Source: an uncultured virus (IMG/VR IMGVR_UViG_3300033994_002454)
Lineage: Duplodnaviria; Heunggongvirae; Uroviricota; Caudoviricetes
IMG/VR virus record: IMGVR_UViG_3300033994_002454
Coordinates: 1 to 64,000 of that record
Direction: 5' to 3' (one strand)
Length of the DNA stretch: 64,000 nucleotides
Position numbers and translations under genes: made by a program. The notes below the pieces were generated by a model. It saw nothing but the letters and a program-made list of their open reading frames with translations, was not told the origin of the DNA and ran no database searches. Below, piece after piece: positions 32,047-57,045 of this stretch (position 1 is its first letter; the number at the start of each line of letters is the position of its first letter).

Positions 32047-32304
32047 TTAAAAATCTTGGTCACATACCTCATCATGTAAGTCAAGCATGTACTGGCGCTC
32101 CATCATTTCCTGCTTATAGGTCTTGGTCTTAAACACCTCAAATGGAGCAATTGGGTTATCGCTCTTGGCTCTAACATGGTACTCATCCCATACCTCTCTA
32201 GCGTTATCAACCTCAATCAATATTTGGCTTGGTTCTAGGTTTAGGGCGTATGTCTTAATTACTTTACCACTTAAATCACTCACTGTAAAATCAACTTTAA
32301 TCAT
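32047..32304 (-). CDS. early hypothetical protein
   Basis: Start MIKVDF immediately behind class-A element at 32329. Confidence 0.6.
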   Translation of the reverse strand: MIKVDFTVSDLSGKVIKTYALNLEPSQILIEVDNAREVWDEYHVRAKSDNPIAPFEVFKTKTYKQEMMERQYMLDLHDEVCDQDF

Positions 32305-32360
32305 GTTTCTCAATTTATTTATACACCCAATATACGAACCCATTTACCCAACCTGTATTC

Positions 32361-32786
32361 CTAATACCCCTCTGGGCGGCTAAACTGAGGGTGGTTATCA
32401 TAATATCTAACCCAGTACTCATATTCTTCACGTTCGGCTTTAGCCTTATCTACATCTTTGATCTTACCGGATTGTCTTAACTTATTATATCTATCTCTAA
32501 CCGTAAGCATCCAATCAAAATAATCTCTACCCTTAGCATGGTTATATGAATATGAATCTGTATCATCATACTCAGCAAACCAATCATCTACGAATTCAAA
32601 CCCTCTTATTTCAACTAACTCTTTCTTACCATCTATATTTCTCCATCTATTACCTGAGAGACCTAATAGATGCTTAATGTACTCATCTTCATTACCCTCC
32701 CATCTATCTTTAGGGGTTAAACCCATTCGGTACTCTTGATCTCTCCAATATGCTGCTGATTGTCTTTGTTTTTCTGAACGTCCCAT
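32361..32786 (-). CDS. early hypothetical protein
   Basis: Likely start MGRSEKQ at 32786 behind element at 32811. Confidence 0.6.
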   Translation of the reverse strand: MGRSEKQRQSAAYWRDQEYRMGLTPKDRWEGNEDEYIKHLLGLSGNRWRNIDGKKELVEIRGFEFVDDWFAEYDDTDSYSYNHAKGRDYFDWMLTVRDRYNKLRQSGKIKDVDKAKAEREEYEYWVRYYDNHPQFSRPEGY

Positions 32787-32845
32787 TTTATTTATTTTAA
32801 TTATACACTCAATATACGAACCCGCTCGTGCGACCCTACTTCCGC

Positions 32846-32894
32846 CCCCAAAAGCCCGATTACTCGGGCTCACAGGTCGTATAATTAAAAAGAT
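32846..32894 (-). terminator. intrinsic terminator, copy 2 of the direct repeat
   Basis: Minus AGCCCGA-GTAA-TCGGGCT-TTT, directly 3' of the tRNA-like cluster. Confidence 0.65.
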
Positions 32895-32897
32895 TTG

Positions 32898-32956
32898 TGG
32901 AGTGGGTGGAGTCGAACCACCTGCTTGTACCTGTACAGCTTTAACCAAACCACTCC
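32898..32956 (-). ncRNA. minimised tRNA-like RNA lacking a normal anticodon loop
   Basis: GGAGTG/CACTCC acceptor, GGTGG-TTCGACT-CCACC T arm, short D region, TGTAC-AG-GTACA in place of the anticodon arm. Confidence 0.6.
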
Positions 32957-32975
32957 TGGGCCTGCAGACCCGTTA

Positions 32976-33047
32976 TAAATGTGCTTCATATGTGCAAAGC
33001 TTAATCCATTGGCTTGGATTCCGGAGCCTAACCCGGTTCTACATTTA
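32976..33047 (-). ncRNA. 72-nt cloverleaf-shaped RNA without tRNA consensus bases
   Basis: TAAATGT/ACATTTA closing stem with three hairpins CCGG/CCGG, AATCCA/TGGATT, GCTTT/GAAGC. Confidence 0.45.
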
Positions 33048-33053
33048 CCATTG

Positions 33054-33123
33054 TGGTCATGACAGGACTCGAACCTGCTCCCTCCCTTATAATCGGTTGC
33101 GTTCTCCCACACGCCCCATGACC
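33054..33123 (-). ncRNA. tRNA-like RNA with unpaired anticodon stem
   Basis: GGTCATG/CATGACC acceptor, GCGT/ACGC D stem, GCAGG-TTCGAGT-CCTGT T arm; anticodon arm ACCGATTATAAGGGAGG does not form a 5-bp stem. Confidence 0.6.
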
Positions 33124-33144
33124 TTATATTTTTAGTTCAGTGGC

Positions 33145-33480
33145 TTAAGCAGCCACCTCACTCCCATCTGCCTTTACTTTGGCAGGTCGTCCACGCTTAA
33201 CAGCTCCACCATTTAACTCAGCTTTAGCCTTCAACTCAGCTAATCGTAACTGTCTAGCACTATTTGGATTTACAGGACGTCCTTGACCTACACCTAATGC
33301 TTTATTCAAAGCTTGTTTTTTCAATCGAGCTTGTCTCTCACTGTTTTCATTTACAGGACGTCCTCGTTTCAACTCACCATTTGCTCTTTTTACTTCTAAC
33401 TCTGCTAAACGGATTTGTCTTGCACTATTAACATTAACTGGACGACCTTTAACTACATTTTTTACTTCTACTTTTTTCAT
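33145..33480 (-). CDS. tandem AT-hook (GRP) repeat protein
   Basis: Four GRP cores in approx. 29-aa repeats (KRGRPVNENSERQAR). Confidence 0.7.
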   Translation of the reverse strand: MKKVEVKNVVKGRPVNVNSARQIRLAELEVKRANGELKRGRPVNENSERQARLKKQALNKALGVGQGRPVNPNSARQLRLAELKAKAELNGGAVKRGRPAKVKADGSEVAA

Positions 33481-33555
33481 AACTTTTATTTTTCTTTTTT
33501 ATTTATATTATCAATATACGAACTATCTATTTATTTTCTTATTCCCCCGTTTTAA

Positions 33556-33696
33556 TTACACTACAAAAAAACATTCAGTTCCAATTGTAACACAATTATA
33601 TATTATCAAACTTACTATTCCAACTATAAACCCAAAACCTAAAGTAATACAAACTCTATCAACTAAATTACCTTTTACTAAACTTAAACTTTTCAT
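33556..33696 (-). CDS. small membrane protein, cytosine-depleted
   Basis: Manual translation MKSLSLVKGNLVDRVCITLGFGFIVGIV.., 46 aa, own class-A element; 3 C on coding strand. Confidence 0.5.
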   Translation of the reverse strand: MKSLSLVKGNLVDRVCITLGFGFIVGIVSLIIYNCVTIGTECFFVV

Positions 33697-33744
33697 CTTT
33701 TTATCTCTTTAATTATACACTCAATATACGAACTATACTTTAAC

Positions 33745-33828
33745 TTACTTATTCCCTTGTTTACTAATTAATTTCATAATTAATACTACATTCAATAACA
33801 AACTTAAATAAACTATACTACCTATCAT
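33745..33828 (-). CDS. 27-aa membrane peptide, cytosine-depleted
   Basis: MIGSIVYLSLLLNVVLIMKLISKQGNK behind element 33855; 1 C on coding strand. Confidence 0.45.
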   Translation of the reverse strand: MIGSIVYLSLLLNVVLIMKLISKQGNK

Positions 33829-33899
33829 CTTTTTCTTTTTTTAATTATACATTCAATATACGAAACTACATTGTATTATTTTATTCCTGGGTTTTTTAT

Positions 33900-34313
33900 T
33901 TAGTATTCAGGGTAATCAATATACCCAGCTTCATCCACAATATGGGTAATAGCTGTAAGTGCTTTATTCATACTTTCAGTAGCTCGTTTAAAATCATCTT
34001 CTCTTGATTTTTTACCAGCTTCAAAAGCATAATACATTAAGAGATTTACATATTGTTCTGTAAATCCAAATTTATACTTATCTGAGGTTTCTAGTCCCAT
34101 TGCTTCAGAAAGGCTAATTTCTTTACGATTGTGAACCCGGAAAGTATTAATTTTATCACCAACTAGATTATCAATCTCTTCAATACGTTCAATAGCCATA
34201 GCCTTTAACCATAAAATATTTTGTGGTATTTCTTCAGGTGCCTTATCTAATTTAGCAGCTCCTTCTTTTACCTTTTCTCGGTAAGTGTCGTAAAATGATT
34301 TTTCTTCGCTCAT
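33900..34313 (-). CDS. early hypothetical protein with normal base composition
   Basis: 137 aa behind element 34341. Confidence 0.65.
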   Translation of the reverse strand: MSEEKSFYDTYREKVKEGAAKLDKAPEEIPQNILWLKAMAIERIEEIDNLVGDKINTFRVHNRKEISLSEAMGLETSDKYKFGFTEQYVNLLMYYAFEAGKKSREDDFKRATESMNKALTAITHIVDEAGYIDYPEY

Positions 34314-34330
34314 AACTTATCTCTTTTTAA

Positions 34331-34522
34331 TTATACATTCAATATACGAAATGCATTTACCATTTTCATGTCCTTATTGGTTAGTTTAATTTGTTTAAAA
34401 TTTTTCTCACCATCAAAAATCACAAAATACTTTTTATCACTTTTAACTTCTCTTACTATACAACTTACTTTTTTCAAATACATTATTTCAATTAAACTAA
34501 TAACACTTTTTAAATCAATCAT
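34331..34522 (-). CDS. early hypothetical protein, cytosine-depleted
   Basis: Behind element 34548; no + strand G from 34394 to 34554. Confidence 0.55.
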   Translation of the reverse strand: MIDLKSVISLIEIMYLKKVSCIVREVKSDKKYFVIFDGEKNFKQIKLTNKDMKMVNAFRILNV

Positions 34523-34573
34523 TTTATTTCTTTTTAATTATACAATCAATATACGAATTATAATTTAAATCGC

Positions 34574-34801
34574 TTAGTCCTTAATAATTACAATATCACC
34601 AACTTCACAATCCATTTCATCAACTCTATTTATTATTTTTTCATCTAATCCAGAACAATTTTTAGATTTAATTTTCAATAATTCTCCACTATCTAAATCT
34701 TCAACTACACAACTAATTATTCTACTTACTCTACAACCCTTAGATAATTCATTTACACTATCAATTTTAAATTTTCTTTTAATTACTTTAAATCTTTTCA
34801 T
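34574..34801 (-). CDS. early hypothetical protein, cytosine-depleted
   Basis: 75 aa lacking Ala, Pro, Thr, Gln and His; 4 C in 228 coding nt. Confidence 0.6.
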   Translation of the reverse strand: MKRFKVIKRKFKIDSVNELSKGCRVSRIISCVVEDLDSGELLKIKSKNCSGLDEKIINRVDEMDCEVGDIVIIKD

Positions 34802-34851
34802 TTTATCATTTTTAATTATACAATCAATATACGAACTATAGTTTAATTTTG

Positions 34852-35142
34852 TTAGTCCCGTTCAAATAATATGCTGAACAAATCCTCCATCCATATTTTA
34901 TTTTCACTTTCAACAAAATATATACCCATTCCTCTATAATTGTATACTAAATCGTCATTATATGTTTTATTATATTCATTAATTTTTTTCACAAATTCAA
35001 CAATATCATTGTCCAATTCATCAACATTAAATTCAATAACTTCAAAATCATTATACAATGTATTAAAATGTTTCATCAACAATTTATTCAATTTAGTGTT
35101 TTGGAATCGTTTTACTTCATTTACAAAATTCATATTTTTCAC
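34852..35142 (-). CDS. early hypothetical protein
   Basis: Behind element 35160; stop overlaps next GGACTA box. Confidence 0.6.
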   Translation of the reverse strand: MKNMNFVNEVKRFQNTKLNKLLMKHFNTLYNDFEVIEFNVDELDNDIVEFVKKINEYNKTYNDDLVYNYRGMGIYFVESENKIWMEDLFSILFERD

Positions 35143-35191
35143 TTTTTAATTATACAATCAATATACGAATTATATTTCAGTAACGTTATTC

Positions 35192-35368
35192 CTATTTAAA
35201 CTCATTTTTTATTTCAAATGTAACATAAAATAAATCATCCATTCCATCATATTCACTGAATTCAAATCCTAATTCCTCTGCTACATCTTTCAATTTCAAA
35301 AACAATTCAATATTTTTTTCATTGATTCCATTCATAATAAGTCCTTTTACAATTGCTTCGTTTTTCAT
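35192..35368 (-). CDS. small early protein (58 aa)
   Basis: Manual translation MKNEAIVKGLIMNGINEKNIELF.. behind element 35395. Confidence 0.5.
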   Translation of the reverse strand: MKNEAIVKGLIMNGINEKNIELFLKLKDVAEELGFEFSEYDGMDDLFYVTFEIKNEFK

Positions 35369-35427
35369 CTTTTTATTTTTTTAATTATACAATCAATATA
35401 CGAAATATACTTTAACTCTGTTATTCC

Positions 35428-35556
35428 CTAGTTTAATCTGATTATAGCATCTTCAAACTTCAATGTTTCAGGTAAAAATACAAATTGTACAGTATTCACT
35501 TCCTGAATTAATAAAAATGCTAACAATTCTAATTCTTTTCTTTCTTCTTCACTCAT
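35428..35556 (-). CDS. small early protein (42 aa)
   Basis: Manual translation MSEEERKELELLAFLLIQEV.. behind element 35579. Confidence 0.45.
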   Translation of the reverse strand: MSEEERKELELLAFLLIQEVNTVQFVFLPETLKFEDAIIRLN

Positions 35557-35599
35557 TTTATTTTCTTTTTATATCATCAATATACGAAGGAGAAATGTA

Positions 35600-35809
35600 T
35601 TAAAACATTCCTCCACTTATAACAAATCTATATTTATAGATAGTTTCATAATCACCTTCACTAAAAATTTCTTCACATACTTTTTCTCTCTCACACCATT
35701 CTACTTCATTATAATAAATCCATCCATCAGGACCCGTCCCATGTATTCTAATTTGTAAATTCTTATTTTCTACTTTTTCTAACTCTTCAATTAATTCTTT
35801 TACTGTCAT
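35600..35809 (-). CDS. MTVKELIEEL-type small phage protein
   Basis: Common phage N-terminal motif; behind element 35835. Confidence 0.6.
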   Translation of the reverse strand: MTVKELIEELEKVENKNLQIRIHGTGPDGWIYYNEVEWCEREKVCEEIFSEGDYETIYKYRFVISGGMF

Positions 35810-35860
35810 TTTCTATCTTTTTATTTATACACTCAATATACGAATTTCATTTTAATTAAC

Positions 35861-36058
35861 TTATTCCATTTTTAAATCAATAATAAAATCAATTAACAAA
35901 TCCACTAAACTATCATCACTAATCCATCCTCTTTCATACAAATAATAATTTTTTACATCTTCTAAAGTTTTCAATTTATCAATTTCTATCTCAAATTCTA
36001 AAACTTGTTCACCACTAATTTCACACTCAAATTCAAATACTTTTTCACTTAATGTCAT
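35861..36058 (-). CDS. early hypothetical protein, cytosine-depleted
   Basis: 3 C in 198 coding nt; behind element 36084. Confidence 0.6.
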   Translation of the reverse strand: MTLSEKVFEFECEISGEQVLEFEIEIDKLKTLEDVKNYYLYERGWISDDSLVDLLIDFIIDLKME

Positions 36059-36092
36059 TTTCTATCTTTTTAATTATGTTATCAATATACGA

Positions 36093-36114
36093 AAGCCTCT
36101 TTAATAAGAGGCTT
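36093..36114 (-). terminator. terminator hairpin embedded in class-A promoter spacer
   Basis: Perfect 9-bp stem AAGCCTCTT/AAGAGGCTT, 4-nt loop, followed on minus by TCGTATATT. Confidence 0.7.
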
Positions 36115-36141
36115 CCTTTGATGATGATTATTATTTTATTC

Positions 36142-36465
36142 CTAAGCAGCTATTTCATTATTATCTTTTTTAGGTCGTCCTCTTTTAACTAAACCTAACT
36201 CTCTTTTACTCTCTAATTCTTTTAGTCTTTTCTGTCTTTCACTATTTTCATTTACAGGACGTCCTTTTTTCAACTCTCCATTTTTTCTTTTATTTTCTAA
36301 CTCACTAATCCTCTTTTGTCTTTCACTATTTTCATTTACAGGTCGTCCTCTTTTTAACAATCCTAACTCTCTTTTACTTTCTAATTCTTTAATCCTTAAT
36401 TGTCTTACACTGTTTTCATTTACAGGACGTCCTAATTTTTTTACTTCATTTTTCATAACTTTCAT
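36142..36465 (-). CDS. tandem AT-hook (GRP) repeat protein, paralog of 33145-33480
   Basis: GRPVNENS repeated three times plus terminal KRGRPKK. Confidence 0.7.
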   Translation of the reverse strand: MKVMKNEVKKLGRPVNENSVRQLRIKELESKRELGLLKRGRPVNENSERQKRISELENKRKNGELKKGRPVNENSERQKRLKELESKRELGLVKRGRPKKDNNEIAA

Positions 36466-36539
36466 TTTTTATTTTTTTAATTATACAATCAATATACAAA
36501 ATTTATTTTAATTATTTTATTCCTCAGGTAGTTTAATCA

Positions 36540-36731
36540 TTAACCATACACCACCCCCCATTTAATTAACATCCCATTAATTTCTATTTCACCACTATCT
36601 CCTACACATTCATATTCTCCAAAATCACACTCACTATCATTACTAATAAAAATTCCAACATTACTTTTTTCATCTAATTCAATAAAAATTCCTTCAAAAT
36701 CTAATACCTCTTTTCCATCTTTTACTTTCAT
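36540..36731 (-). CDS. 63-aa protein encoded with no cytosine on the coding strand
   Basis: No G on + strand from 36532 to 36754; own class-A element at 36757. Confidence 0.6.
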   Translation of the reverse strand: MKVKDGKEVLDFEGIFIELDEKSNVGIFISNDSECDFGEYECVGDSGEIEINGMLIKWGVVYG

Positions 36732-37070
36732 AACAATTTTCTTTTTAATTTATTGTAATATACGAAAATTATTTGATGAAATCTATTCCTGAGCAGTCTG
36801 ATAGCCTGCAAATTCCTTGCAAGCTTCTTTTAATGTTTTTCAAACGCCACGTTTGGCTATAATCGCGGTGTGGGTCTCGGTTTAATATTCAACTGTTCCT
36901 ACCTCACACACGAATATCAATGTTGTTTTCCATTTTTTGATTACTGGGAGGTTCTTTCTGTGTCCTAATGCTGTTGCGTTCCTCTGTTCTGTTTCCATTA
37001 TGGAGAATACCTTAATATTCAGTTATACATATGTGAAGATAATGATTTTCATTCAATTTTCCAAGTATTT

Positions 37071-37493
37071 TTGACGATTTCTTTAACGATTTTCATTATA
37101 TGACGATCCCCATCCCCCCATTTCCCCGTGTGGGGGACGTGTTTTTTCATGTTTTTTGTATATACTTTTGGAAAGTTTTAAAAAGGACGTGGACGGGCAA
37201 TGGAGGGGTTAGACACACCACTTTTTCACACCATTCATTGCCAAACACACTTGTCACATACTATTAACGATTTTCGTTTTGTTGATGATCATCATTGACG
37301 ATTTACATTCCCCATGTTGATTTTCATTCCACACATTGACGATTTCCTTTTGTTGATAATCATCGTTGATTTTCATTTTTGACGAGTTCCGTTGACGATG
37401 TTCGTTTGCATTTATTTCACGTTGATTCTCGTTTCTTTGACAATGTATATTTGATGATTTACGATTTAATTTCCATTGCTAATTTGACGATTT
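37071..37493. repeat. cluster of about 13 TTGACGATTT-like decamer direct repeats in a largely non-coding region
   Basis: Exact copies at 37071, 37295, 37336, 37484; variants at 37083, 37100, 37264, 37282, 37353, 37379, 37392, 37437, 37451. Confidence 0.7.
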
Positions 37494-37626
37494 CTATTAA
37501 ACGTCCTGTTCTAACATCATTCACCTTATTTGCTCCAGTGATGATTTCTTTCAGTTTATCTTTATTTTGTTTTACCAATGAACTTAGTAATGTCAATTCA
37601 TTGTCTGATAATTCTTTTATTGTCAT
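37459..37626 (-). CDS. small early protein (55 aa)
   Basis: Manual translation MTIKELSDNELTLLSSLVKQNK.. behind element 37649. Confidence 0.5.
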   Translation of the reverse strand: MTIKELSDNELTLLSSLVKQNKDKLKEIITGANKVNDVRTGRLIEIVKLAMEIKS

Positions 37627-38309
37627 CTGTCTTATTTTATTTATCTGGGATATACGATCTCTATTTTATATTTTCTATTCCCTCAGTTAATTCATCTACA
37701 TAAAACCTTACATCTTCTATTTGGGTTTTATTTTTAAATACTATTACTTTTTCCTCTCTAACCATAACAAAGTATTCATTACCTTGTTCATCTGTAAAAT
37801 GTATGTCTTTCATAACTTTTATTTTGAATATACAAACCAAATCCCTATAACTTGTTTCCCATTTATTTCAAATGGCGCTGTTGTGCCATCACTAAATGCA
37901 TATATATAAAAATCTAATTCTTTCATATTATCTATTTTTAATTATTTCAATATAACACTTTCCACTATAACCACTTCCACACCATTTACTTAATTCTTTT
38001 TCGGTTAATGTATTGGCTAGTTCTTCAATGGCTTCAATTGACATGTTATCAATTTGTTTTGCTGTGTAGCTCATAACCTTATTTATTCAATTTTAATTTC
38101 AATTTCAAATCCCTAATAGTCATTTTTACAAAACCTGCAGTCATAATAGGCATTTTTCCACTCTGTTCTACTTTTTCAATTTCAGCAATCATGTTTTCTT
38201 GTACTTTATCTAATCCATCATTGATTAGAAACTTTTCAAAATCATTTAATTTACTCATAACTTTTCTTTTTATTTTCTTAATTTATACATTCAATATACG
38301 AAAGCTTTT

Positions 38310-38654
38310 TTACTTATCTTCGTCCTCTACTTTATCTTCAAGTTCAAATTGTTGCAACACTGCATTGATATGACTCATTGTTTCATAAACATCTATTTGT
38401 GCACTATCTACTTCAATTACGTTTCCATAGTTAATAGAAAACTCAACATCATCTTTATTAACTAAATCATCACAATTATACTCTAATACTCGTTCAATTT
38501 CATTTGATAATTCATTAATCAATTCTTCACTTAGTTTTGTTACTGTATTAACATCATCTAATCCATTTATCAATGCTATTACTTTATCAATATCAACTTG
38601 TGATGATAATGCTTTTGCTGCTTCTAATTGTGCTACTAATTCTACTTTTTTCAT
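38310..38654 (-). CDS. early acidic hypothetical protein
   Basis: Behind element 38679. Confidence 0.65.
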   Translation of the reverse strand: MKKVELVAQLEAAKALSSQVDIDKVIALINGLDDVNTVTKLSEELINELSNEIERVLEYNCDDLVNKDDVEFSINYGNVIEVDSAQIDVYETMSHINAVLQQFELEDKVEDEDK

Positions 38655-38695
38655 ATTTTTCTTTTTTTAATTTATTGTAATATACGATTTTTCTT

Positions 38696-38908
38696 TTAAT
38701 TATTTGATTCCTCTATTAAAGTAATTAATTCATCAATCAATTCTTTATCATCAATTTCATTGTTGTTAAAGTCAACTACTTGAACTTCATCCATAATAAA
38801 ATCCATAAATGAATCGTGAATAGTTACTACATAACCTTCACCATTTTCTCCTTCAATAGTATATACTTTTGTTTCGTATACTTCTTTATCTGTGATTTCT
38901 AATTTCAT
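38696..38908 (-). CDS. early acidic hypothetical protein
   Basis: Behind element 38934. Confidence 0.6.
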   Translation of the reverse strand: MKLEITDKEVYETKVYTIEGENGEGYVVTIHDSFMDFIMDEVQVVDFNNNEIDDKELIDELITLIEESNN

Positions 38909-38944
38909 AACTTTTATTTCTTTAATTTATTGTAATATACAAAA

Positions 38945-38962
38945 GCCCTCTTAATAGAGGGC
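38945..38962 (-). terminator. terminator hairpin embedded in class-A promoter spacer
   Basis: GCCCTCT/AGAGGGC 7-bp stem followed on minus by TTTTGTATATT. Confidence 0.65.
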
Positions 38963-38968
38963 GTCCTT

Positions 38969-39304
38969 TTAAAATTTACCTTTAAACATTAATTTTAATT
39001 TATCTTCTATTCCTGAATTAGCTAATTCTGTTTCTTTTTCATCAATCAACTTATCCAAATCAATACCTAAGCTCAATAATGATTTTTTAAATTCACTAAA
39101 CCCTTTATAACTTGAATCAACATCAATTCCTAAAAACTTAATGTTTGCAAAATCAAGACCAATTTCTAAATCAACTTCAACACCACCATCTTTACCTTCA
39201 CTGATGAATGCTTGGTTGATTAATGTTAACTCAATTGCATCGTTGTTTCCTAATTTTACTTCTGTATTGAAGCCTACCATTAATGTTTTGTTTGTAATTT
39301 TCAT
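38969..39304 (-). CDS. early hypothetical protein
   Basis: Likely start MKITNK at 39304 behind element 39341. Confidence 0.6.
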   Translation of the reverse strand: MKITNKTLMVGFNTEVKLGNNDAIELTLINQAFISEGKDGGVEVDLEIGLDFANIKFLGIDVDSSYKGFSEFKKSLLSLGIDLDKLIDEKETELANSGIEDKLKLMFKGKF

Positions 39305-39512
39305 AACTTTTATTTTTTTTCTTTTTTTATTTATACACTCAATATACGAAAGCCTTTTTAATAAGCTTATTCCTCTACTTTCTTTAAACTTGAAACATTT
39401 ACAATGTATCTGTATCGTTCGTTTTGTATTGCACACGTCATATCTCCTGCTTTATACCACACTAACGTCCATGTTCCGGGGTATTTGTAGCATGTTACTT
39501 TATCTCCTACTT

Positions 39513-39794
39513 TCATAATGGATAACCTATGTCTCGTTTAGCAAAATCATCGGCTTCAAATTGTTCAATTATTCTCATTTCATTTATGATTTCCATTGCT
39601 TTATCCCATTCTGGTAAGCTGTAATCTGATTTGATATCTAATTCTTTCATCAATTCATAAATGGCCATCCACTCATTTCGATATGCAGTGGCTAAATTTG
39701 AATCTCTTCCAAAACGTGATTCATATTGTTTTGTTTGCAAATATAGCTTTGCATCTTTTTCTTGAATTTTTTTGATCATGTCTGCTTTTTTCAT
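39513..39794 (-). CDS. early hypothetical protein
   Basis: Behind element 39822. Confidence 0.6.
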   Translation of the reverse strand: MKKADMIKKIQEKDAKLYLQTKQYESRFGRDSNLATAYRNEWMAIYELMKELDIKSDYSLPEWDKAMEIINEMRIIEQFEADDFAKRDIGYPL

Positions 39795-39838
39795 AACTTT
39801 TATTTCTTTTTAATTTATTGTAATATACGAAAAGGATG

Positions 39839-40222
39839 TTAAAACCCCCATTCCTCAAGCATTTCTTTTAAAAATTCTACCCGATTATAACCATCTCTAC
39901 ATACTAACCAAATACCATCTCTGTTTAAACAATAAACAAATTCTACACTACTACCAAAACCTAACTCAAACAAACCTTCAACATCTAAATAACTAGTTGA
40001 ATGTAAATCTTCACCTCGATCACGACAATATGCTACTGTATCTTCAGTTGATTCTCCTAATGAACTGATATCTCCTAGTTCAATTAGTTTTTGTAATTTT
40101 TCTTTATCGTAGTGTTTGAATAATGTTATACCTACACCATCAACATACCCATCAAAATGACAGTAAATTGAATTTACTATACCTGATTCGTTTTCAATTG
40201 CTATTCTACTTCTTGTACTCAT
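39839..40222 (-). CDS. conserved phage protein with YCHxDGY motif
   Basis: MSTRSRIAI..SIYCHFDGY..GVG..L..HY. Confidence 0.7.
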   Translation of the reverse strand: MSTRSRIAIENESGIVNSIYCHFDGYVDGVGITLFKHYDKEKLQKLIELGDISSLGESTEDTVAYCRDRGEDLHSTSYLDVEGLFELGFGSSVEFVYCLNRDGIWLVCRDGYNRVEFLKEMLEEWGF

Positions 40223-40281
40223 GTTTTCTTTTTTTATACATTCAATATACGAAATTTCTTTTAATAAGCTTATTCCTCTGT

Positions 40282-40509
40282 TTAAAGGTTTTCTATTTCT
40301 TGTTTAACTTCTTCATAATACTGAATAGTTAAATAATTACAATAATGTATTTTATCTCCTACTCTACTACCAAAATTATTTAATATCTCATCCACTACAA
40401 TTAAGGCACATTCTTTTGAAAACTCTTGCATAGAAACACCTCGGGTAAAATCCTTACCTAGCTCAAGATATTTGTTAACTAATTCTATTGCTTTGTCTTT
40501 TGGTATCAT
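40282..40509 (-). CDS. flavobacterial-phage-type small protein
   Basis: PKDKAIELV..KECALIVVDEIL..YYEEVKQEIENL pattern. Confidence 0.6.
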   Translation of the reverse strand: MIPKDKAIELVNKYLELGKDFTRGVSMQEFSKECALIVVDEILNNFGSRVGDKIHYCNYLTIQYYEEVKQEIENL

Positions 40510-41281
40510 TGTTCTGTTGTAAAAAGTTCAATAATAAAATTATCATCATTTTCAATAGCAGTGTCTACCAATGTTGCAAACACTTCTATCATTGTAGTTG
40601 CTTTTTTAATTGATGATATTTTTTCTTTCCAATCTCGTTCAAATCGACGAAACGATTCTACTTCAAATTCGATATCATCTATATCATCTATTTCCTTAAT
40701 ATACTGGAGTGTATAACCATATGAACAATCAAATTCAGTGTCCATCCACTCTAGCAATTGTTTTTTTCCTCTTTCAAAATCAAATTTCATAATCCTAAAT
40801 CTTTACGTTCTTCAATTAAATATTCTACTTGTTCAATTGGCATTGTTAACATTAATTGTCTTAACATTTGCCAGTCCATTTTTATTTCTTTAAGAATGCA
40901 TTGCATTGTTTCACCATCCACTTCTATATCTTTGAGTACATCAATCACTAATTTAACTCTTTGTGGATTTTCTTGCATTTTTTCTGTCATAACTTTTATT
41001 TTTTACCAATGATTACCATTATTTCTTGATGGGTTTTGAGCGAATGCTTCTTTACACATCTGTTCTACATTACTGTCCTTAAATTTACCCCATGGAAATA
41101 TACCTTCGTATGTACCATATTGGTAACCAACTAACGCAACTTGTACTATTTCTTTTAGTACTTCCATTTCTTCATCAGTTTTAGCTATTTGTCTTGCTGA
41201 TATGGTATTTAATTGACCATATCTATCACAACCGCTTGTTCTGTAATGTTTAACTAATTTTTCTACTAACATTTCTTTCAT
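40506..41281 (-). CDS. three small coupled hypothetical genes (40506-40790, 40787-40990, 41003-41281)
   Basis: ORF track; overlapping stop/start junctions behind element 41305. Confidence 0.55.
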
Positions 41282-41313
41282 AACTTTCTCTTTTTCTTAC
41301 TTGAAATATACGA

Positions 41314-41335
41314 AAGCCCTCTTAATTGAGGGCTT
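41314..41335 (-). terminator. terminator hairpin embedded in class-A promoter spacer
   Basis: AAGCCCTC/GAGGGCTT 8-bp stem. Confidence 0.65.
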
Positions 41336-42095
41336 CCTTTTTTGCTTGTTTTGAAAATCGTTCAAGTAATTCCTCTATACTCAGTGCTTCATACTCAACA
41401 TCTTTTTTCTTAAACATAACGTCTCTATCATTGTATGGATCAATTCGAAATTCAATAAAACTACCTGATTCAAATTCAACCTTAACTACATCAAATGAAC
41501 CATAATACTTCGCATAGTCACGTCCGCTTGTAATTGTAGCTGATGGGTATAATGTTTTGTATTTGTTGAGAGTAGCATTCAATAATGCAGTTGATTTATT
41601 ATATTCCTCGAATCGTTGTTTTTCTTTTTCATTATGTTCCAACAATTTGGTTAATAATGTTTTTGGTTTAACATAACGAGATTGATCTTGAATAGTCCAT
41701 GATTGTATTTTGTCTCGTTGAACATCAAATGAAAATGAAGCATTTTTTAATTCCTTAGTGGTTGTATCAAAACGTTTACCTAACAAACTAATCCCACCTG
41801 TATAGAACTTTGCTGTAACTTCAACTTCAAATTGAGTTTTATTGTAACTATAACCTAATGTTACTTTACGTGTGTTGATGGATGATTTAAAATCATTTTT
41901 GTAATGAACACCTTTGATAAATCCTGCTTCAATGAGCATATTTTCAATTCGTTGATTCTCATTTTCTTGGAATGTGATGTTTTTGTTTTGATTTTCAATA
42001 TACCTATCAACTTGTTCTTGTTGTTCAGTTGTCAACAATATACCTGCAAATAAATCTAATTGGTTTGGGTCTTTAATGTTTTCTGTATTTTCCAT
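41322..42095 (-). CDS. early hypothetical protein
   Basis: Likely start MENTEN at 42095; contains QLDLF, a beta-clamp-binding-like pentapeptide. Confidence 0.6.
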   Translation of the reverse strand: MENTENIKDPNQLDLFAGILLTTEQQEQVDRYIENQNKNITFQENENQRIENMLIEAGFIKGVHYKNDFKSSINTRKVTLGYSYNKTQFEVEVTAKFYTGGISLLGKRFDTTTKELKNASFSFDVQRDKIQSWTIQDQSRYVKPKTLLTKLLEHNEKEKQRFEEYNKSTALLNATLNKYKTLYPSATITSGRDYAKYYGSFDVVKVEFESGSFIEFRIDPYNDRDVMFKKKDVEYEALSIEELLERFSKQAKKEALN

Positions 42096-42154
42096 AACTT
42101 TTATTTCTTTTTTATACAATCAATATACGAAATTTCTTTTGAGTATTCTATTCC

Positions 42155-42559
42155 TTAGCCTATACTTGAATCCCAACTTGTTACTATAAAGTCTAATTGC
42201 AATCCTGTAATTTTAGTTTTACTTTCATCACACCATGCTTTTGCTTCAAAACCACCTGTACCATTTAAAATTGGTATTTCATGGTGAGTACCTTTATAAT
42301 CACCTAATCTACTTGCAGCAGCACCTCGCAATAAACGTTCTGCTGTTTCTCTTAAATCATAGATGGTAGGCATTTCACCTCGCCATTTCCAATCTAAAGC
42401 ACCCATAGCACGTTCTACTTGATCAAAATCAAATTCATCCATAATATCTTTGATCATATATTCAAGATCCTTTACTACGGGTTCTGGCTGTTCAAGTGCT
42501 TTATTGATTAGCTGTTGTAGTGTTAGTAACTCGTCTCTGTCTAAATTTTCTAAATTCAT
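42155..42559 (-). CDS. conserved phage hypothetical protein
   Basis: IMDEFDFDQVERAM.ALDWKW motif. Confidence 0.65.
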   Translation of the reverse strand: MNLENLDRDELLTLQQLINKALEQPEPVVKDLEYMIKDIMDEFDFDQVERAMGALDWKWRGEMPTIYDLRETAERLLRGAAASRLGDYKGTHHEIPILNGTGGFEAKAWCDESKTKITGLQLDFIVTSWDSSIG

Positions 42560-42603
42560 ATCCTTTTTATTTGTTTAAATATACGAAAACTATTTTACAA
42601 TTT

Positions 42604-43209
42604 CTATTCCTCTAAACTAGAGGGTAGATAAAGTAGAGTTGGGTTTTTCTTTTGAATATCAATTTCAGGATATTGCTTTTTAAATTCCATAACATCAAAT
42701 CTTTCAGTAATCAAGTGATGTCCATTTTTAGTTGGAATATTAGCTATAATCTTCATCCCAAATGGTTTACATTTGGTATTGATATATTCTTGAATTTCTC
42801 TATCAAAACTTTCGTCAGAGTTATCAATATCAACAATCCATCGTTTTTCATGAGTTTTGATCTGCCCAACAACTGAATCAAATAGGTGTTTTTGATTGTG
42901 GTTTCCGTCTTGTATTCTTTGAGCCAAAGCAACCATCATATTCAACGATACATCTTTATGGTTTTGTTTCTGAACATGGATGTAAGCTCTTGCTTTAAAC
43001 ATTTCACAAAGTTGCTTAATCTCATCGTATCTGTTTTCTAAATGTTCAATGGATTCAATACAATAAGTTTTAATAGTTCTAACTGATTGATGGTTATCCC
43101 GCTCACCTTCAGGTTGATCTTTCTTGCGTTTGAAAACATAAAGCATATAAAAATCACCTTTATTTTCAAAGTTAAGTAATAGTTTTATATGCTCTAAATT
43201 GTCAATCAT
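42604..43209 (-). CDS. conserved phage protein, possible AEP/nucleotidyltransferase-like fold
   Basis: KRKKD, ARAYI, WIVDID, TKNGHHLI (DxD plus sxG.H). Confidence 0.45.
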   Translation of the reverse strand: MIDNLEHIKLLLNFENKGDFYMLYVFKRKKDQPEGERDNHQSVRTIKTYCIESIEHLENRYDEIKQLCEMFKARAYIHVQKQNHKDVSLNMMVALAQRIQDGNHNQKHLFDSVVGQIKTHEKRWIVDIDNSDESFDREIQEYINTKCKPFGMKIIANIPTKNGHHLITERFDVMEFKKQYPEIDIQKKNPTLLYLPSSLEE

Positions 43210-43238
43210 ATCCTTTTTATTTGTTTAAATATACGAAA

Positions 43239-43751
43239 TCATCTTTCAATACCTAATTCCTTAAGTGTTTTTGGAGTATAATCTACTTGCTCACACGAAA
43301 CACAAATGTAGCGATCATCTGGTATTTCAAATGGAGCCATTGGTGCATCCATCATCACTACTTTTCCATGAATGTGTCCATGTATATTTTTGTTGAAGCG
43401 ATAGTCAAGTTCCATTGGGTGAATAGGGCAATGTGTCAACATTACTCCTTTGTACTGTATCATCCCAGCTACACTTTCAACGTGTTCAAGTAGTTTTTTA
43501 ACGTCTTGACGGCGATCATGGTTTCCTAGTACAACATGTTTTACACCGTTTAAACGATCAAGTAGTGGATATGGTGATGATTTCTCCATAGTCACATCCC
43601 CTAAAATATATGTAACGTCTCGTTTATGAACAACACTGTTGTATTTGGCAATTACGTATTCGTCATGTTCCTCTACACTAGAGAAACCTCGGTGCAATGC
43701 CATGTTGATGTGCCCTAAATGTAAATCTGCTATGAAAAAAACTCTTGCCAT
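43239..43751 (-). CDS. calcineurin-like metallophosphoesterase
   Basis: ADLHLGH, LGD, GNHD, THCP, HGHIH. Confidence 0.9.
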   Translation of the reverse strand: MARVFFIADLHLGHINMALHRGFSSVEEHDEYVIAKYNSVVHKRDVTYILGDVTMEKSSPYPLLDRLNGVKHVVLGNHDRRQDVKKLLEHVESVAGMIQYKGVMLTHCPIHPMELDYRFNKNIHGHIHGKVVMMDAPMAPFEIPDDRYICVSCEQVDYTPKTLKELGIER

Positions 43752-43794
43752 TTTCTTAATTTTATTGGAATATACGAAATCTATTTTACAATCT

Positions 43795-44318
43795 CTATTC
43801 CTTACTTAAGGTAAACATCATTTCAGCTACCTCATCTGCTGTACAACGTGGCATTACTTCTACATAACCATCTTTTAAAACAACCCATTTCCCATCTGAA
43901 TATAGCATCCAGTCTTTATCTCCGTTCCATGCTGCTACTTCAGCTGTGGTTTCACCTTGATCTGAATATGATGATTTTCCAAATATAACGCTAATGGTAC
44001 AACCATTTCCAAATGTGATTTGGAAACCATCATGCCACATATCTTTATCTACTACTGTTGCAAATTTTTTCATTCGTCTTCAAATTTTGCTGTTATTACG
44101 ACTTGTTCAGACAAATACTCTATCTGTCCTGCACACGCATTGTATTTTGTAAATTTAGGGTTTTCTATCATTTCAAAATAGCAACGTTCATTTTCTGTGT
44201 ACAATAATTTTCCATAAAATGTTGGAAATGCATTACTACACAATACACGTCCAACCATTTTTTTCAAGTTATGTCCTTGATGAATGCGGGATGTTATTTT
44301 ATTTCTACCTAAATTCAT
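43795..44318 (-). CDS. two small hypothetical genes (43795-44073, 44070-44318)
   Basis: ORF track; first has GFQITFGNG.TISV..AEVA motif common in phages. Confidence 0.55.
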
Positions 44319-44321
44319 ATT

Positions 44322-44495
44322 CTAAAGCATAGCAATAAAACCTACAATCAACAACAGTACTACAGCTGGTATCCAAAGTGGGGATGTAACCCACCACCAA
44401 CTCCAATCAATGTTTCCTGTTAATTTCAATACTGTAAATATGATGAACAGAACCATTCCGATTCCTATTCCTCCTGATGATTTTTTATTTTCCAT
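44322..44495 (-). CDS. two-TM membrane protein with LKLTG.IDWSWWWV motif
   Basis: Likely start MENKKS at 44495. Confidence 0.7.
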   Translation of the reverse strand: MENKKSSGGIGIGMVLFIIFTVLKLTGNIDWSWWWVTSPLWIPAVVLLLIVGFIAML

Positions 44496-44957
44496 ATGTT
44501 TCGTTGTAGTATTGTTCAAATGTTTTTCTCGGGTAATTTTCACTTTCCCACATCTCATAATTTTCTGCAAAATCAATCATCTGCTCTTTCTCCATTTCTA
44601 ACTTAGACTCAGCATCGTTTATACACAATTCTAAACAATTTACTAAACTTGGTGCATGCTCTTTGCATATGTCTAACGTTGCCTTGAGCCACTCAATATG
44701 TTCTTGCATTGCTGTTTTCATTGTTCTTGTTGTTTAAAGTTTTCTTCCCAATATCCTTCAAATGTTTGCCAATCTTTTTCAGCAATGCCTTTACCTTCAA
44801 ATCTACCTGCTTGATGTGCTACATCCCAAGTTTCATTGTGTTGATTTATTTCCATTTCTTTGGCTTGGTCAAATAGCTTATAATTCTCGCCTTTTAAAGT
44901 AACTTCGTTTCCTGTTACTAACTGGTCAATCAACCACTCTACTGCTGTCTGTTTCAT
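44485..44957 (-). CDS. two paralogous KQTAVEWL/AKEMEKEQ-family small proteins (44485-44721, 44718-44957)
   Basis: Shared KTA..EW, EME..Q and TFE.YY motifs. Confidence 0.6.
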
Positions 44958-45019
44958 TGTTCTCTCTTTAATTTACTTCAATATACGAAATTTCTTTTGC
45001 TCAAACTATTCCTTTTTAG

Positions 45020-45049
45020 AAAAACCTGCCCCACTTTCGTGAGGCAGGG
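45020..45049 (-). terminator. intrinsic terminator downstream of RNA cluster
   Basis: Minus CCTGCC-TCAC-GAAA-GTG-GGCAGG-TTTTT. Confidence 0.75.
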
Positions 45050-45081
45050 TAAAAAGAAAACTACTGTTATGAAGAGCAGCG

Positions 45082-45164
45082 TAGTCAGGGCAGGACTCGA
45101 ACCTGCACTAGCCCTGGTATTCACCATATTAAATTAGGACCGTGTTACATTACACCACCTGACT
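45082..45164 (-). ncRNA. tRNA-like RNA with 20-nt anticodon loop
   Basis: AGTCAGG/CCTGACT acceptor, GTGT/ACAC D stem, GTCCT/AGGGC stem around AATTTAATATGGTGAATACC, GCAGG-TTCGAGT-CCTGC T arm. Confidence 0.7.
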
Positions 45165-45168
45165 ATAT

Positions 45169-45254
45169 GAGGATGAGAAATCCTCTGTGTTGGCAACTAT
45201 CTTTTAAGTTATTAGTTGCTGTTTACTTATATTCCTTTCTCAAGGGAACAACAC
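45169..45254 (-). ncRNA. structured RNA candidate with loop-loop complementarity
   Basis: GTGTTG/CAACAC stem enclosing two hairpins; TGAGAAA complementary to loop TTTCTCA of the following GAGGA/TCCTC hairpin. Confidence 0.5.
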
Positions 45255-45258
45255 TTTG

Positions 45259-45376
45259 AAGTCAGGACAGGATTTGAACCTGTATTTGGGCTGCCATTAT
45301 AGTGACCACACGCAGTGTGCTTTTTTACCCTTGGTGCTATAACCATCCAATGCGTCTACCATTCCGCCACCTGACT
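45259..45376 (-). ncRNA. tRNA-like RNA with approx. 55-nt structured insert in the anticodon arm
   Basis: Same AGTCAGG/CCTGACT acceptor; Leu-type D arm GGCGGAATGGTAGACGC; ACAGG-TTCAAAT-CCTGT T arm; insert has TTATAG/CTATAA and CACAC/GTGTG stems. Confidence 0.7.
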
Positions 45377-45442
45377 TACCCCGAATTTTATAGTAGCGGC
45401 ACCTTTACGCGGCCGTCGGTTCTACTTGCGACGATTTTTTGC

Positions 45443-46252
45443 TTAGGCAGCTATAAATTCAGCTGCCATTGCAAATAATTTTTGGTTGATTTCCATGTCT
45501 TGTTTGAAATTCTTCACTTTACGTGCTTTTCTAATTTTAGCACCTGTCATGTATGAAAAACTACCATCTAATATCTTTTCTTGAATCACGTTAAATACTG
45601 ACCATAAATCACTACCTTCATCTTCTTTACGTGTTGGTGCAAGTAGTTCATCTAGGTTAATGTTCATAGCTTCAACTTGATCTTCTGTGAAACGAGTTGT
45701 CAATGCTTTTTTAGCAAGCTCTTTTGCTTGTTCCTCGTCCAACTTAATTTCTTTCATTTTGTTCATTGACTCAACTGTCAAAGGCAACTGCTCAACCATT
45801 TCACGAATTTGCACTTGCAATTCCTCAAATGTGTAACCCATGTGACGCATTTTTACATCATTGAACTGCTCAGTTGAAATAACCAAACCATTTTCACATA
45901 CCATACGGAATAAACCCGCTGTAAACGTAAACGCATTTTTTCCATCGTTTGAATTTGTTAATAGGATTTGTGGAAATACTGTATCACCGTCAGAACCATT
46001 AATTACTACATCTGGGTTGCGGAATACAACTAAGTGTTTTTGGAATCCTTTTGTTCCTTCTTTTCTAGCTTTTACCTCTTTGGCATCAACTACACCCCAT
46101 CCTAATTGTTCCATATCTTCAATCACTCGATTGGTTGGAATGTGGGTAAATTTGTCTGAAACCGTTGGAGCGGCTGTTTCTGTAAAAATTGACTTAGCGC
46201 GTTGTCTAACTTCACTCATTGTCAAAAAACTGTCTTGGCTTAAATCTAACAT
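45443..46252 (-). CDS. DUF932/DUF945 family protein
   Basis: SDKFTHIPT, KHLVVFR, NSNDG..F..GLFRMVCENG, H, DLWSVFNVIQE. Confidence 0.85.
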   Translation of the reverse strand: MLDLSQDSFLTMSEVRQRAKSIFTETAAPTVSDKFTHIPTNRVIEDMEQLGWGVVDAKEVKARKEGTKGFQKHLVVFRNPDVVINGSDGDTVFPQILLTNSNDGKNAFTFTAGLFRMVCENGLVISTEQFNDVKMRHMGYTFEELQVQIREMVEQLPLTVESMNKMKEIKLDEEQAKELAKKALTTRFTEDQVEAMNINLDELLAPTRKEDEGSDLWSVFNVIQEKILDGSFSYMTGAKIRKARKVKNFKQDMEINQKLFAMAAEFIAA

Positions 46253-46315
46253 AACTACTTTTTTTTAATTTAACTTTCTTTTCTTTTTTCTTACTTTCAA
46301 TATACGAAAGCTTTT

Positions 46316-56820: not shown

Positions 56821-56821
56821 G

Positions 56822-56894
56822 TTGTCCCACAAGGGCTCGAACCTCGACTCTTCTGAACCAAAATCAGACGTGTTGCCAATTACACCATAGGACA
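56822..56894 (-). tRNA. tRNA-Gln(TTG)
   Basis: Full cloverleaf, anticodon loop TT-TTG-GT; CCA not encoded. Confidence 0.92.
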
Positions 56895-56899
56895 GGATA

Positions 56900-57033: not shown

Positions 57034-57045
57034 AAGAAATTTTAG

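Follow-up and report, generated by a model that had tools for sequence, protein, structure and literature searches.

Conserved small genes with almost no cytosine on the coding strand in an uncultured phage and its relatives

The uncultured virus IMGVR_UViG_3300033994_002454 (Caudoviricetes) has a block of small protein-coding genes whose coding strands are nearly free of cytosine. The stretch of DNA that we analysed (the window) is the first 64 kb, positions 1 to 64,000, of this 124-kb IMG/VR record. Within 33556–36731, eight small minus-strand genes have 0–4% C on the coding strand, as compared to about 15% genome-wide, and one of them, at 36540–36731, has no C at all. Because nearly all of the genes are on the minus strand, the G-free runs that are seen on the plus strand amount to coding strands without C. 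Similar genes are present in related phages, and the C-free state is kept through roughly 40% protein divergence. Natural protein-coding genes that exclude one nucleotide from the coding strand across a long divergence appear to be new: a full-text literature search for cytosine-free or cytosine-less phage genes returned no relevant report among the matches listed, and within that scope we found none in print.

The lack of cytosine is neither chance nor artefact

The longest run in the window that lacks any single base is G-free, on the plus strand, at 36532–36754 (223 nt). Further G-free runs on this strand are at 34394–34554 (161 nt) and 35843–35966 (124 nt), and no run that lacks A, C, or T is longer than 53 nt. 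An earlier reading of the sequence only had reported the runs at 36532–36754 and 34394–34554, the coding-strand C counts of five genes (0/192, 4/228, 3/198, 3/141, and 1/84), the absence of A, P, T, Q, and H from the proteins of 36540–36731 and 34574–34801, and the abundance of G on the coding strand. We reproduced each of these, and coding-strand G within the block is 0.18–0.29.

The G content of 33540–36760 is 5.2%, versus 13.9% for the window, and genes elsewhere have coding-strand C fractions of 0.12–0.19. In 200 first-order Markov surrogates of the window, the longest G-free run averaged 68.6 nt, with a maximum of 120 nt. When 33540–36760 was shuffled 2,000 times at its own low G content, the maximum was 214 nt and 223 nt was never attained. 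So, the 223-nt run is not attributable to chance. On coding strands across the complete 166-kb genome (see below), G-free runs reach at most 77 nt.

The block is also not an artefact of assembly. A second IMG/VR record is 99.998% identical across all 124,015 bases. In five DNA sequencing runs of lake water, from five studies, 75–95% of sampled 31-mers of 33100–37000 were present (in RNA runs, 5–9% were). Furthermore, weaker or stronger forms of the trait are present in eight further related contigs and in the cultured phage immuto_2-6A.

The trait occurs in a group of lake and Baltic phages

The second IMG/VR record, which matches across the 124 kb, is complete at 166,116 bp (G1); it closes on itself with a 127-bp overlap and has the block at about 62.6–65.9 kb. 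The genome encodes T4-type proteins of replication and structure (PolB, clamp loader, a UvsX-like protein, SSB, DnaB, primase, terminase, baseplate wedge and hub, sheath, tube, and major head protein) and domains that are typical of Bacteroidota (CHU_C-associated Ig domain, CarboxypepD_reg, and GH16). We found no near-identical DNA among cultured phages. The nearest relative in culture is Flavobacterium phage vB_FspM_immuto (immuto), which shares 84 open reading frames (ORFs) with G1, at 24–80% identity and in broadly the same order. Judging from these genes, the virus is a T4-like myovirus that is distantly related to immuto (Immutovirus), and its host is presumably Flavobacterium-like.

To compare relatives, we took in full eight records that contain the promoter pattern described below (G1–G4 and G6–G9) and added G5, which we found via a C-free protein. 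The carriers of the trait are a group of lake and Baltic phages, whose hosts are probably Flavobacterium. Besides the runs of 223, 161, and 124 nt in G1, coding-strand C-free runs reach 702, 568, and 301 nt in G7; 576 and 353 nt in G6; 372, 259, and 157 nt, adjacent to each other, in G5 (complete, 173 kb, with a different early promoter); 240 and 175 nt in G4; 171 and 158 nt in G3; 160 nt in G8; and 114 nt in G9. The longest in G2 (complete, with the same promoter and core proteins that are 70–90% identical) is 85 nt. Coding-strand G-free runs never exceed 77 nt in any of the nine. In G7, one ORF of 137 codons is entirely free of C, and another, of 135 codons, has a single C. No genes were found that are present in G1 and G5 yet absent from G2 (the three complete genomes compared).

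The early region of immuto_2-6A has C-free runs of 158, 117, 99, and 90 nt. Its gene at 68330–68686 has 5 C in 357 nt and none at third positions that have C or T (0/61), and the genes on both sides, which have the same promoter, are normal in composition. Like G1, immuto has DpdA3, FolE, QueC, QueD, and QueE (discussed below), an early region in which small genes follow a repeated promoter, and a nearly C-free gene. It differs in having a single such gene instead of a block of eight, in having its own QueF and a formyltransferase, which G1 lacks, and in its promoter sequence.

The C-poor genes encode conserved proteins

A random sequence of A, G, and T with the composition of the C-free gene would have 12% stop codons, and the probability of 62 sense codons in a row would be 3.5e-4. 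Because C-free sequence is rich in stops, the long ORFs in it are not chance. Across the group, we found ORFs of 63–138 codons with 0–2 C.

The 63-amino-acid protein of the C-free gene has nine clusters of homologues in metagenomes, at 60–98% identity. Across this family (10 sequences), 25 columns are invariant, no sequence contains A, P, Q, or H, and each has at most two T. The protein is small, acidic, and conserved, and an AlphaFold2 model predicts an all-beta fold with a pLDDT (predicted local distance difference test) of 77. No match to this model was found in the PDB at E ≤ 0.001. Searches of the block's proteins against PHROGs gave no informative match, and the ESM Atlas gave no usable match; a Pfam search of just four of the proteins (33900–34313, 39839–40222, and the two GRP genes, see below) also gave no match. 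The C-poor genes belong to at least 30 unrelated families.

Cytosine is lost at the nucleotide level, and the loss is maintained

We pooled the 58 ORFs from ten genomes whose coding-strand C fraction (fC) is below 0.05. At third codon positions, the share of C among C plus T is 40/1705 (2.3%), versus a background of 20.2%. Codon choice within amino acids is similarly affected. In the C-poor ORFs, 3% of Arg residues are in the CGN box (background 41%), 2.5% of Leu residues are in the CTN box (34%), and 9% of Ser residues are in the TCN box (73%). Protein composition is altered as well: A, P, Q, H, and T together make up 3.3% of residues versus 22.6%. And C is lost in every context (5.7-fold for AC, 8-fold for TC, 13-fold for GC, and 22-fold for CC).

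Among homologous C-poor genes, C seldom takes part in the changes. In 38 C-poor pairs, which are not independent of each other, C is involved in 101 of 1173 nucleotide differences (8.6%), as compared to 39.9% in 875 normal pairs. In single pairs at 57–63% protein identity, C is involved in 0/80, 1/114, and 1/57 differences. Among the homologues of C-poor ORFs, with up to nine listed per ORF, fC never exceeds 0.091. The C that remains is at functional places: in the stems of terminators and in conserved Thr, Arg, and Pro codons.

Three other causes can be set aside. A TC-specific deaminase or an ACA-specific nuclease is ruled out by the depletion of C in all contexts. Extra enrichment of G is ruled out because the third-position share of G equals that of other small genes. 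And a C-poor neutral equilibrium is ruled out by the intergenic DNA, whose coding-strand C is 0.10–0.15 genome-wide.

The block consists of cassettes behind a repeated promoter

The core of the repeated promoter, (TT)CGTATATTG(AnTGTATAAT), has 19 copies in 32336..46306, on the minus strand only, and each is 15–40 nt before an ATG. This nearly invariant repeat is in front of each small gene. Its usual layout, read along the minus strand, is an aGGAATAAg box, about 20 nt of spacing, TTCGTATATTGAnTGTATAAT, an A-rich leader of about 15–25 nt, and the ATG. The same 20-nt promoter pattern is present at 58 loci on 24 IMG/VR contigs. A scan with the sigma-70 consensus gave 59 sites versus 58.4 expected, so the repeated promoter is not sigma-70-like. 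It seems closer to the −7 box of Bacteroidota. A GC stem-loop is directly before the repeat at 41337–41312 and 38962–38945 (from a scan) and at 36114–36093 (read by eye), and also in G7; most of the promoter copies within the block have no GC stem. Going by the architecture of these cassettes alone, we infer that the genes of the block are expressed early.

In the available portions of two papers on T4-type phages, the elements known as PeSL are described as composite promoter-terminator cassettes that flank orphan genes in variable regions (PMC2839356, PMC4122927). Similarly to our block, the PeSL of RB49/phi1, T4/PST, and KVP40/nt-1 are described there as arrays of small orphan genes behind a repeated early promoter. 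In places, the PeSL promoter is joined to a terminator stem-loop, of which the window has possible counterparts at the sites given above. The genes at PeSL cassettes also vary between close relatives, as in G1 versus G2: the genes of our block have no homologue in G2, and G3–G9 fill the block with different sets of genes. There are differences as well. The promoter of our phage is not sigma-70-like, many of its copies in the block have no GC stem, and the available portion of PMC2839356 does not mention a bias in base composition.

In the PeSL archetype, RB49, none of 262 ORFs has a coding-strand C fraction below 0.111, and runs without some base reach at most 62 nt. CP220 (GC 27%) and phiST have no C-poor genes, and their longest C- or G-free runs are 111 and 83 nt. 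Because RB49, CP220, and phiST are negative, the trait does not follow simply from AT-richness, from PeSL cassettes, or from DpdA3 modification in itself. With G2, these phages rule out a general property of PeSL and plain AT-richness. Among the genomes examined, the trait is so far confined to the Immutovirus-like group.

In G5, the more distant of the complete relatives (L082, 3900–5000), the repeated early motif is another one, TTTATATTTATATAAATTAAA, and the C-free genes are separated by GC hairpins, for example TAGGTGGTCAGAAATGATCACCTA. Because G5 uses another early motif, the trait is independent of any single promoter sequence.

Selection as the favoured explanation, with mutation as an alternative

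The sequence-only reading had proposed either selection for C-free early mRNA or for a G-free template, or else a local strand-specific C-to-T mutator. As defences that could exert such selection, it had named viperins that make ddhCTP, C-specific RNases, and DarT1. The bias that underlies both proposals is real, strand-specific, common to the relatives, and maintained. As for the choice between them, the evidence leans towards selection that acts on genes, although the mutator keeps some support (discussed below).

What puts selection ahead of mutation is that the pattern is at the level of the gene, and not of the promoter or the region. The boundaries of the depletion coincide with the borders of genes. 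Genes at 32361–32786, 32047–32343, and 41322–46252 are behind the same promoter core and have normal third-position ratios of 0.17–0.33 (background 0.217). In favour of selection are also the change of codon box for Ser, Arg, and Leu and the loss of C in every context.

We propose that this part of the genome is an early, hypervariable region assembled from small cassettes, each with a repeated host-type promoter, and that the coding strand is kept free of C by purifying selection on the nucleic acid rather than on the protein. We think that this proposal has a little less than an even chance of being correct. Because C is purged at all codon positions, in leaders, and in every context, down to zero, we read the pattern as a cost per nucleotide, such that any C of the transcript (or, equally, any G of the template) would make a full product less likely or slower to obtain. 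That the removal is complete, at the price of five amino acids, also argues for a per-nucleotide cost instead of a bulk property.

More tentatively, we suggest that the C-poor genes are first-wave genes for takeover or counter-defence that are expressed while RNA that contains C is either unmakeable or short-lived. The agent might be of the host or borne by a phage, and candidates would be a chain-terminating analogue of CTP, a shortage of CTP, or a nuclease or termination factor that depends on C. The proposal that would best fit the gene-level pattern is that RNA synthesis or survival meets a C-directed block, which only first-wave accessory genes need to withstand. It is possible, but we consider it doubtful, that these genes form a pool of three-letter first-wave genes (RNA of A, G, and U; template of A, C, and T) that could be expressed without CTP, without being exposed to C-directed attack, and without reading the phage's own modified base.

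Known cases of word avoidance are similar in part. Some phages avoid restriction sites; the first-step-transfer DNA of T5 is free of sites; and mRNAs without ACA are resistant to MazF. In these cases, as in ours, composition leaves an attack that is directed at nucleic acid without a target in the genes that act first. However, the avoided word there has 3–6 nt, while here it is a whole nucleotide, in all contexts, and five amino acids are lost. For our genes, we know of no attacking activity. Another parallel is with the G-less and C-less cassettes that are used as transcription templates in the laboratory, which are artificial and non-coding. The genes described here could likewise be transcribed with three nucleoside triphosphates, but they are natural, protein-coding, and conserved.

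Several observations weigh against purifying selection for C-free genes. First, when compared with other small genes, C drops from 0.153 to 0.018 and T climbs from 0.270 to 0.363, which gives T about 69% of the share that C lost. Second, two genes of the block (34852–35133, with a third-position ratio of 8/48, and 35192–35368, with 3/24) are depleted mainly at codon positions 1 and 2 but have near-normal C at third positions, which is odd if each C is costly. Third, the other early genes behind the same promoter have 38–122 C each, so a C-directed block would be neither general nor lasting. Fourth, G2, a complete close relative, has neither the block nor homologues of its genes, so the feature is dispensable. 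Fifth, in the array of G7, which is the most extreme and has C only in terminator stems, the TTCG of the promoter reads TTTG; this and the gain of T are as expected of C-to-T decay. Also, the gene calls are simple picks of ORFs, and the 38 homologous pairs are not mutually independent.

The main alternative to selection is strand-specific mutational erosion, which we consider somewhat unlikely. In this scenario, the coding strand of the cassettes would be repeatedly single-stranded, its cytosines would deaminate much faster, and only genes that tolerate or lack C would survive there. The single-stranded state could arise from R-loops behind very strong early promoters, or from recombination intermediates at the repeated promoters as cassettes move. 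An excess of C-to-T changes on the non-transcribed strand is well known, and deamination is much faster in single-stranded DNA. Erosion would explain why only the non-template strand is depleted, leaders included, as well as the change in the promoter of G7 and the large share of T in what replaced C. It would also explain the excess of V, I, L, F, and C in the proteins, as these are the residues that C-to-T changes yield from codons for A, T, P, S, and R. GRP1 and GRP2, the paralogous genes at the borders of the block (Table 1), look transitional: their third-position C is nearly gone (3/43 and 1/31), and C at first and second positions is partly kept. And C-free RNA is richer in purines (0.62 versus 0.58), which would favour RNA-DNA hybrids.

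However, erosion seems inconsistent with boundaries at gene borders, with the gene of normal composition inside the block (33900–34313), and with the C-poor gene of immuto, which is alone among normal neighbours that have the same promoter. Similarly, the genes just downstream of the block have the same promoter core and third-position ratios of 0.21–0.33. The third-position C that is retained in some genes of the block is as awkward for erosion as for selection. The share of T at third positions of Gly and Val codons is 0.395, as compared to 0.419 if the other bases had gained in proportion and 0.444 if C had become T (a weak test, at about 2 standard deviations). Divergence at C sites is 0.333 in the block and 0.336 in the flank, so it is not raised, although this test is confounded by selection. 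Transcription-associated strand asymmetry does involve the same strand and the same base, with T as the main gainer. But the known asymmetries are genome-wide skews that amount to a few percent, unlike the complete loss in single genes that are beside unaffected genes with the same promoter.

The phage probably modifies its guanine

The 166-kb genome has a 7-deazaguanine cluster at 85232–92607, outside of the window. The cluster encodes a MazG-like pyrophosphohydrolase (79% identical to immuto's), FolE, a 534-amino-acid ORF, QueE, thioredoxin, QueD, QueC, and a transglycosylase of the DpdA3 family. FolE, QueD, QueE, and QueC were identified through PHROG and NCBIfam matches (genome 86286–91366). 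The DpdA3 homologue (273 amino acids, genome 91786–92607) is not detected by the Pfam TGT profile; we found it by protein similarity. It is 37.7% identical to immuto26A_65, annotated as 'DpdA' (E = 3e-42), 34% identical to CPT_0056 of CP220 (E = 1e-29), and 20% identical to CGPG_00065 of phiST (E = 8e-4, or 2.6e-8 in a second search). The DpdA3 gene is present in all three of the complete genomes of the group (G1, G2, and G5) as well as in immuto. We searched for QueF in G1 and G2 and did not find it, so the modification is probably small (of the preQ0 or ADG type).

According to the available portions of PMC10516641, immuto, CP220, and phiST are all DpdA3 phages in which all G is replaced by 7-deazaguanine derivatives, and the virion DNA of immuto is fully substituted with fdPreQ1. 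By analogy, the G of our phage is probably replaced by a 7-deazaguanine. Because the phage encodes DpdA3 and genes for preQ0, a G-free template would be a strand without the phage's own modified base.

This raises the possibility that the template is kept free of G because the host's RNA polymerase first reads parental DNA that is fully substituted with 7-deazaguanine, so that cassettes with an unmodified template would be transcribed fastest. We think that this is unlikely to be the explanation. The presence of FolE, QueD, QueE, QueC, and a DpdA3 homologue favours it, and so does the strand asymmetry, as G is abundant on the non-template strand. In the available portion of PMC4838386, bacterial RNA polymerases are most inhibited by mid-sized or bulky 7-substituents on deazaguanine and tolerate plain 7-deazaguanine; this would fit the absence of the trait from phiST, whose modification is dDG. 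But the same source places the inhibition at initiation rather than at elongation, with no pausing or short products. Furthermore, in CP220 all G is dADG, and neither CP220 nor phiST has long runs; G2 has the pathway but not the block; and third-position C is normal in other early genes that share the promoter, even though synonymous purging would be cheap. Also, the modification of G1 likely differs from the fdPreQ1 of immuto, yet both lineages have C-poor genes. Overall, a tie to the phage's predicted guanine modification is suggestive, but it is weakened by these controls.

Searches of PHROGs, Pfam, NCBIfam, and phage records gave no match to the 534-amino-acid ORF (genome 87062–88666), which lies between FolE and QueE. 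This ORF could encode another enzyme of the modification, or it could be an insertion unrelated to it. It is absent from G2, G5, and immuto, so it does not correlate with the trait.

RNA structure, Rho, and artefact

Selection might instead be for RNA that lacks G-C pairing or that does not bind Rho, as a transcript of A, G, and U would be nearly unstructured and would have no YC dinucleotides. Rho prefers RNA that is rich in C and poor in G, and the early transcripts of T4 are sensitive to Rho. Open RNA would also aid the start of translation in Bacteroidota, which lack Shine-Dalgarno pairing. We consider this explanation quite improbable. The folding energy of 22 C-poor genes is indeed weaker than that of 22 normal small genes (−0.114 versus −0.180 kcal/mol per nt), the leaders are short and A-rich, and C is arguably the cheapest base to lose from a purine-rich coding strand. 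However, the C-poor mRNAs are as structured as their own shuffles (z = −0.19, not significant), which gives no sign that structure is avoided beyond the effect of composition, and the YC share is 0.31 versus 0.42–0.44, so that YC has fallen just slightly further than RC. Gains of this sort would also be expected to level off, and not to remove the last C or five amino acids. Finally, other early genes are not purged, and the trait is absent from phiST, which is another phage of Bacteroidota.

An artefact of sequencing or assembly, or a chance effect of AT-richness, has practically no probability given the 99.998% identical record, the five DNA runs, the relatives and the cultured phage, the surrogates, and the conserved ORFs.

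Implications

If selection is responsible, then some step of early infection penalises every C in the RNA or every G in the template. Candidates for that step would be defences that use nucleotide analogues or nucleotide depletion, C-dependent cleavage or termination of RNA, and the cost of transcribing hypermodified DNA. We know of no sequence-level escape from any of these agents. If our more specific proposal is true, then writing genes in three letters would be a generic way, at the level of sequence, to express genes for takeover or counter-defence at a time when no others can be expressed, with selection strong enough for five amino acids to be given up. If mutation is responsible, then the block is an unusually sharp natural footprint of the exposure of single-stranded DNA, tied to mobile gene cassettes. 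In either case, the three-letter genes show that folded, conserved proteins are possible with 15 amino acids. Phage immuto, with its one gene of this kind, is available in culture, as is its host (Flavobacterium sp. LMO8).

Genes and elements of the block

The features of the block are listed in Table 1. Most of the highly depleted genes are between the two paralogues GRP1 and GRP2, and the C-free gene is just upstream of GRP2. Each of the paralogues contains three or four repeats of K/RGRPVNxNSxRQxRxxEL, with an AT-hook-like RGRP. G2 has a single copy, which is 74% identical to GRP1, and more than half of the C of GRP2 is gone.

Table 1. Features of the C-poor block and its surroundings, by position in the window. 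fC is the C fraction of the coding strand, C12 is the C fraction at codon positions 1 and 2, and C3 is C relative to C plus T at third codon positions.
Position	Strand	Feature	Details
37661..41281	-	Upstream genes with milder depletion, several of them conserved (homologues in G2)	fC 0.06–0.12
36740..36790	-	Promoter-like repeat before the C-free gene, with a GGAATAG box followed by TTTCGTATATTACAATAAAT	Variant of the 19-copy repeat
36540..36731	-	C-free gene, 63 aa	0 C/192 nt; within the 223-nt G-free run
36142..36465	-	GRP2, repeated K/RGRPVNENSERQ units; upstream paralogue, at the block border	fC 0.059; C3 1/31
36073..36114	-	Composite stem-loop AGCCTCT/AGAGGCT, then directly the repeated promoter; PeSL-like	Read by eye; core at 36091
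35861..36058	-	C-poor gene, 65 aa	3 C/198 nt; C3 0/29
35600..35809	-	C-poor gene, 69 aa	8 C/210 nt; C3 1/28
35428..35556	-	Moderately C-poor small gene, 42 aa	C12 0.095; C3 2/13; own promoter at 35586
35192..35368	-	C-poor gene, 58 aa	7 C/177 nt; C3 3/24
34852..35133	-	C-poor gene, 93 aa, mainly at codon positions 1–2	15 C; fC 0.053; C12 0.038; C3 8/48, near background
34574..34801	-	C-poor gene, 75 aa	4 C/228 nt; protein without A, P, T, Q, H
34331..34522	-	C-poor gene, 63 aa	7 C/192 nt; overlaps the 161-nt G-free run
33900..34313	-	Exception: 137-aa gene with normal C, same promoter	fC 0.133; C3 12/70
33745..33828	-	C-poor gene, 27-aa hydrophobic peptide	1 C/84 nt; homologues in G3, G6, G7, G8
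33556..33696	-	C-poor gene, 46-aa membrane-like peptide	3 C/141 nt; homologues in G3, G6, G7, G8
33145..33480	-	GRP1, downstream paralogue of GRP2, final gene of the block	fC 0.125; C3 3/43
32850..33123	-	tRNA-like element(s) and GC stem-loop, closing the block downstream of GRP1	Rfam tRNA at 33054–33123, 31.7 bits

Several of the C-poor genes have homologues in the other genomes that are also C-poor. The homologue of 35861–36058 in G7 is 77% identical and C-poor, and the homologues of 35600–35809 in G3, G6, and G7 are C-poor in every case. For 34331–34522, the homologues in the same three genomes have fC of just 0.005–0.010. In 33556–33696, part of the leftover C encodes the Thr of a TIGT motif that is seen in the homologues. 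The exceptional gene with normal C, 33900–34313, is present only in the near-identical record and has no family match; it is probably a recent insertion.

At the downstream end of the block, there is a second sequence that resembles a T arm near 32900–32975 (read by eye), which is not called by ARAGORN or Rfam. The hairpin GAGCCCGAG..CGGGCTTT within 32850–33123 recurs at 32010–31990.

On the other side of the block, 36760–37450, which separates the C-free gene from the early genes beyond it, has ordinary G+C and only short ORFs on both strands. It contains a terminator-like hairpin on the plus strand (37115–37136), and it may encode a small RNA.

Other features of the genome

Eight tRNA genes are at 56821–57863 (Gln-TTG, Ala-TGC, Ser-TGA, Asp, Glu, Arg-TCT, Leu-TAA, and Thr-TGT). 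Four of these eight read C-containing codons for residues that the C-free genes shun. At 45081–45164, ARAGORN calls a tRNA to which it assigns no identity and an 'anticodon' of two bases, and Rfam gives a tRNA match of 44.5 bits.

A 2010-amino-acid ORF at 14313–20345, beside the baseplate genes, has no PHROG or Pfam match; it is 71% identical in G2 and is partly present in immuto. The genome also encodes two glycosyltransferases, a nucleotide-sugar epimerase, a protein with a cytidylyltransferase domain, and a GroEL-like chaperonin (genome 68450–72178 and 78457–80094, which are outside of the window, and window 61483–62379 and 6923–8689).

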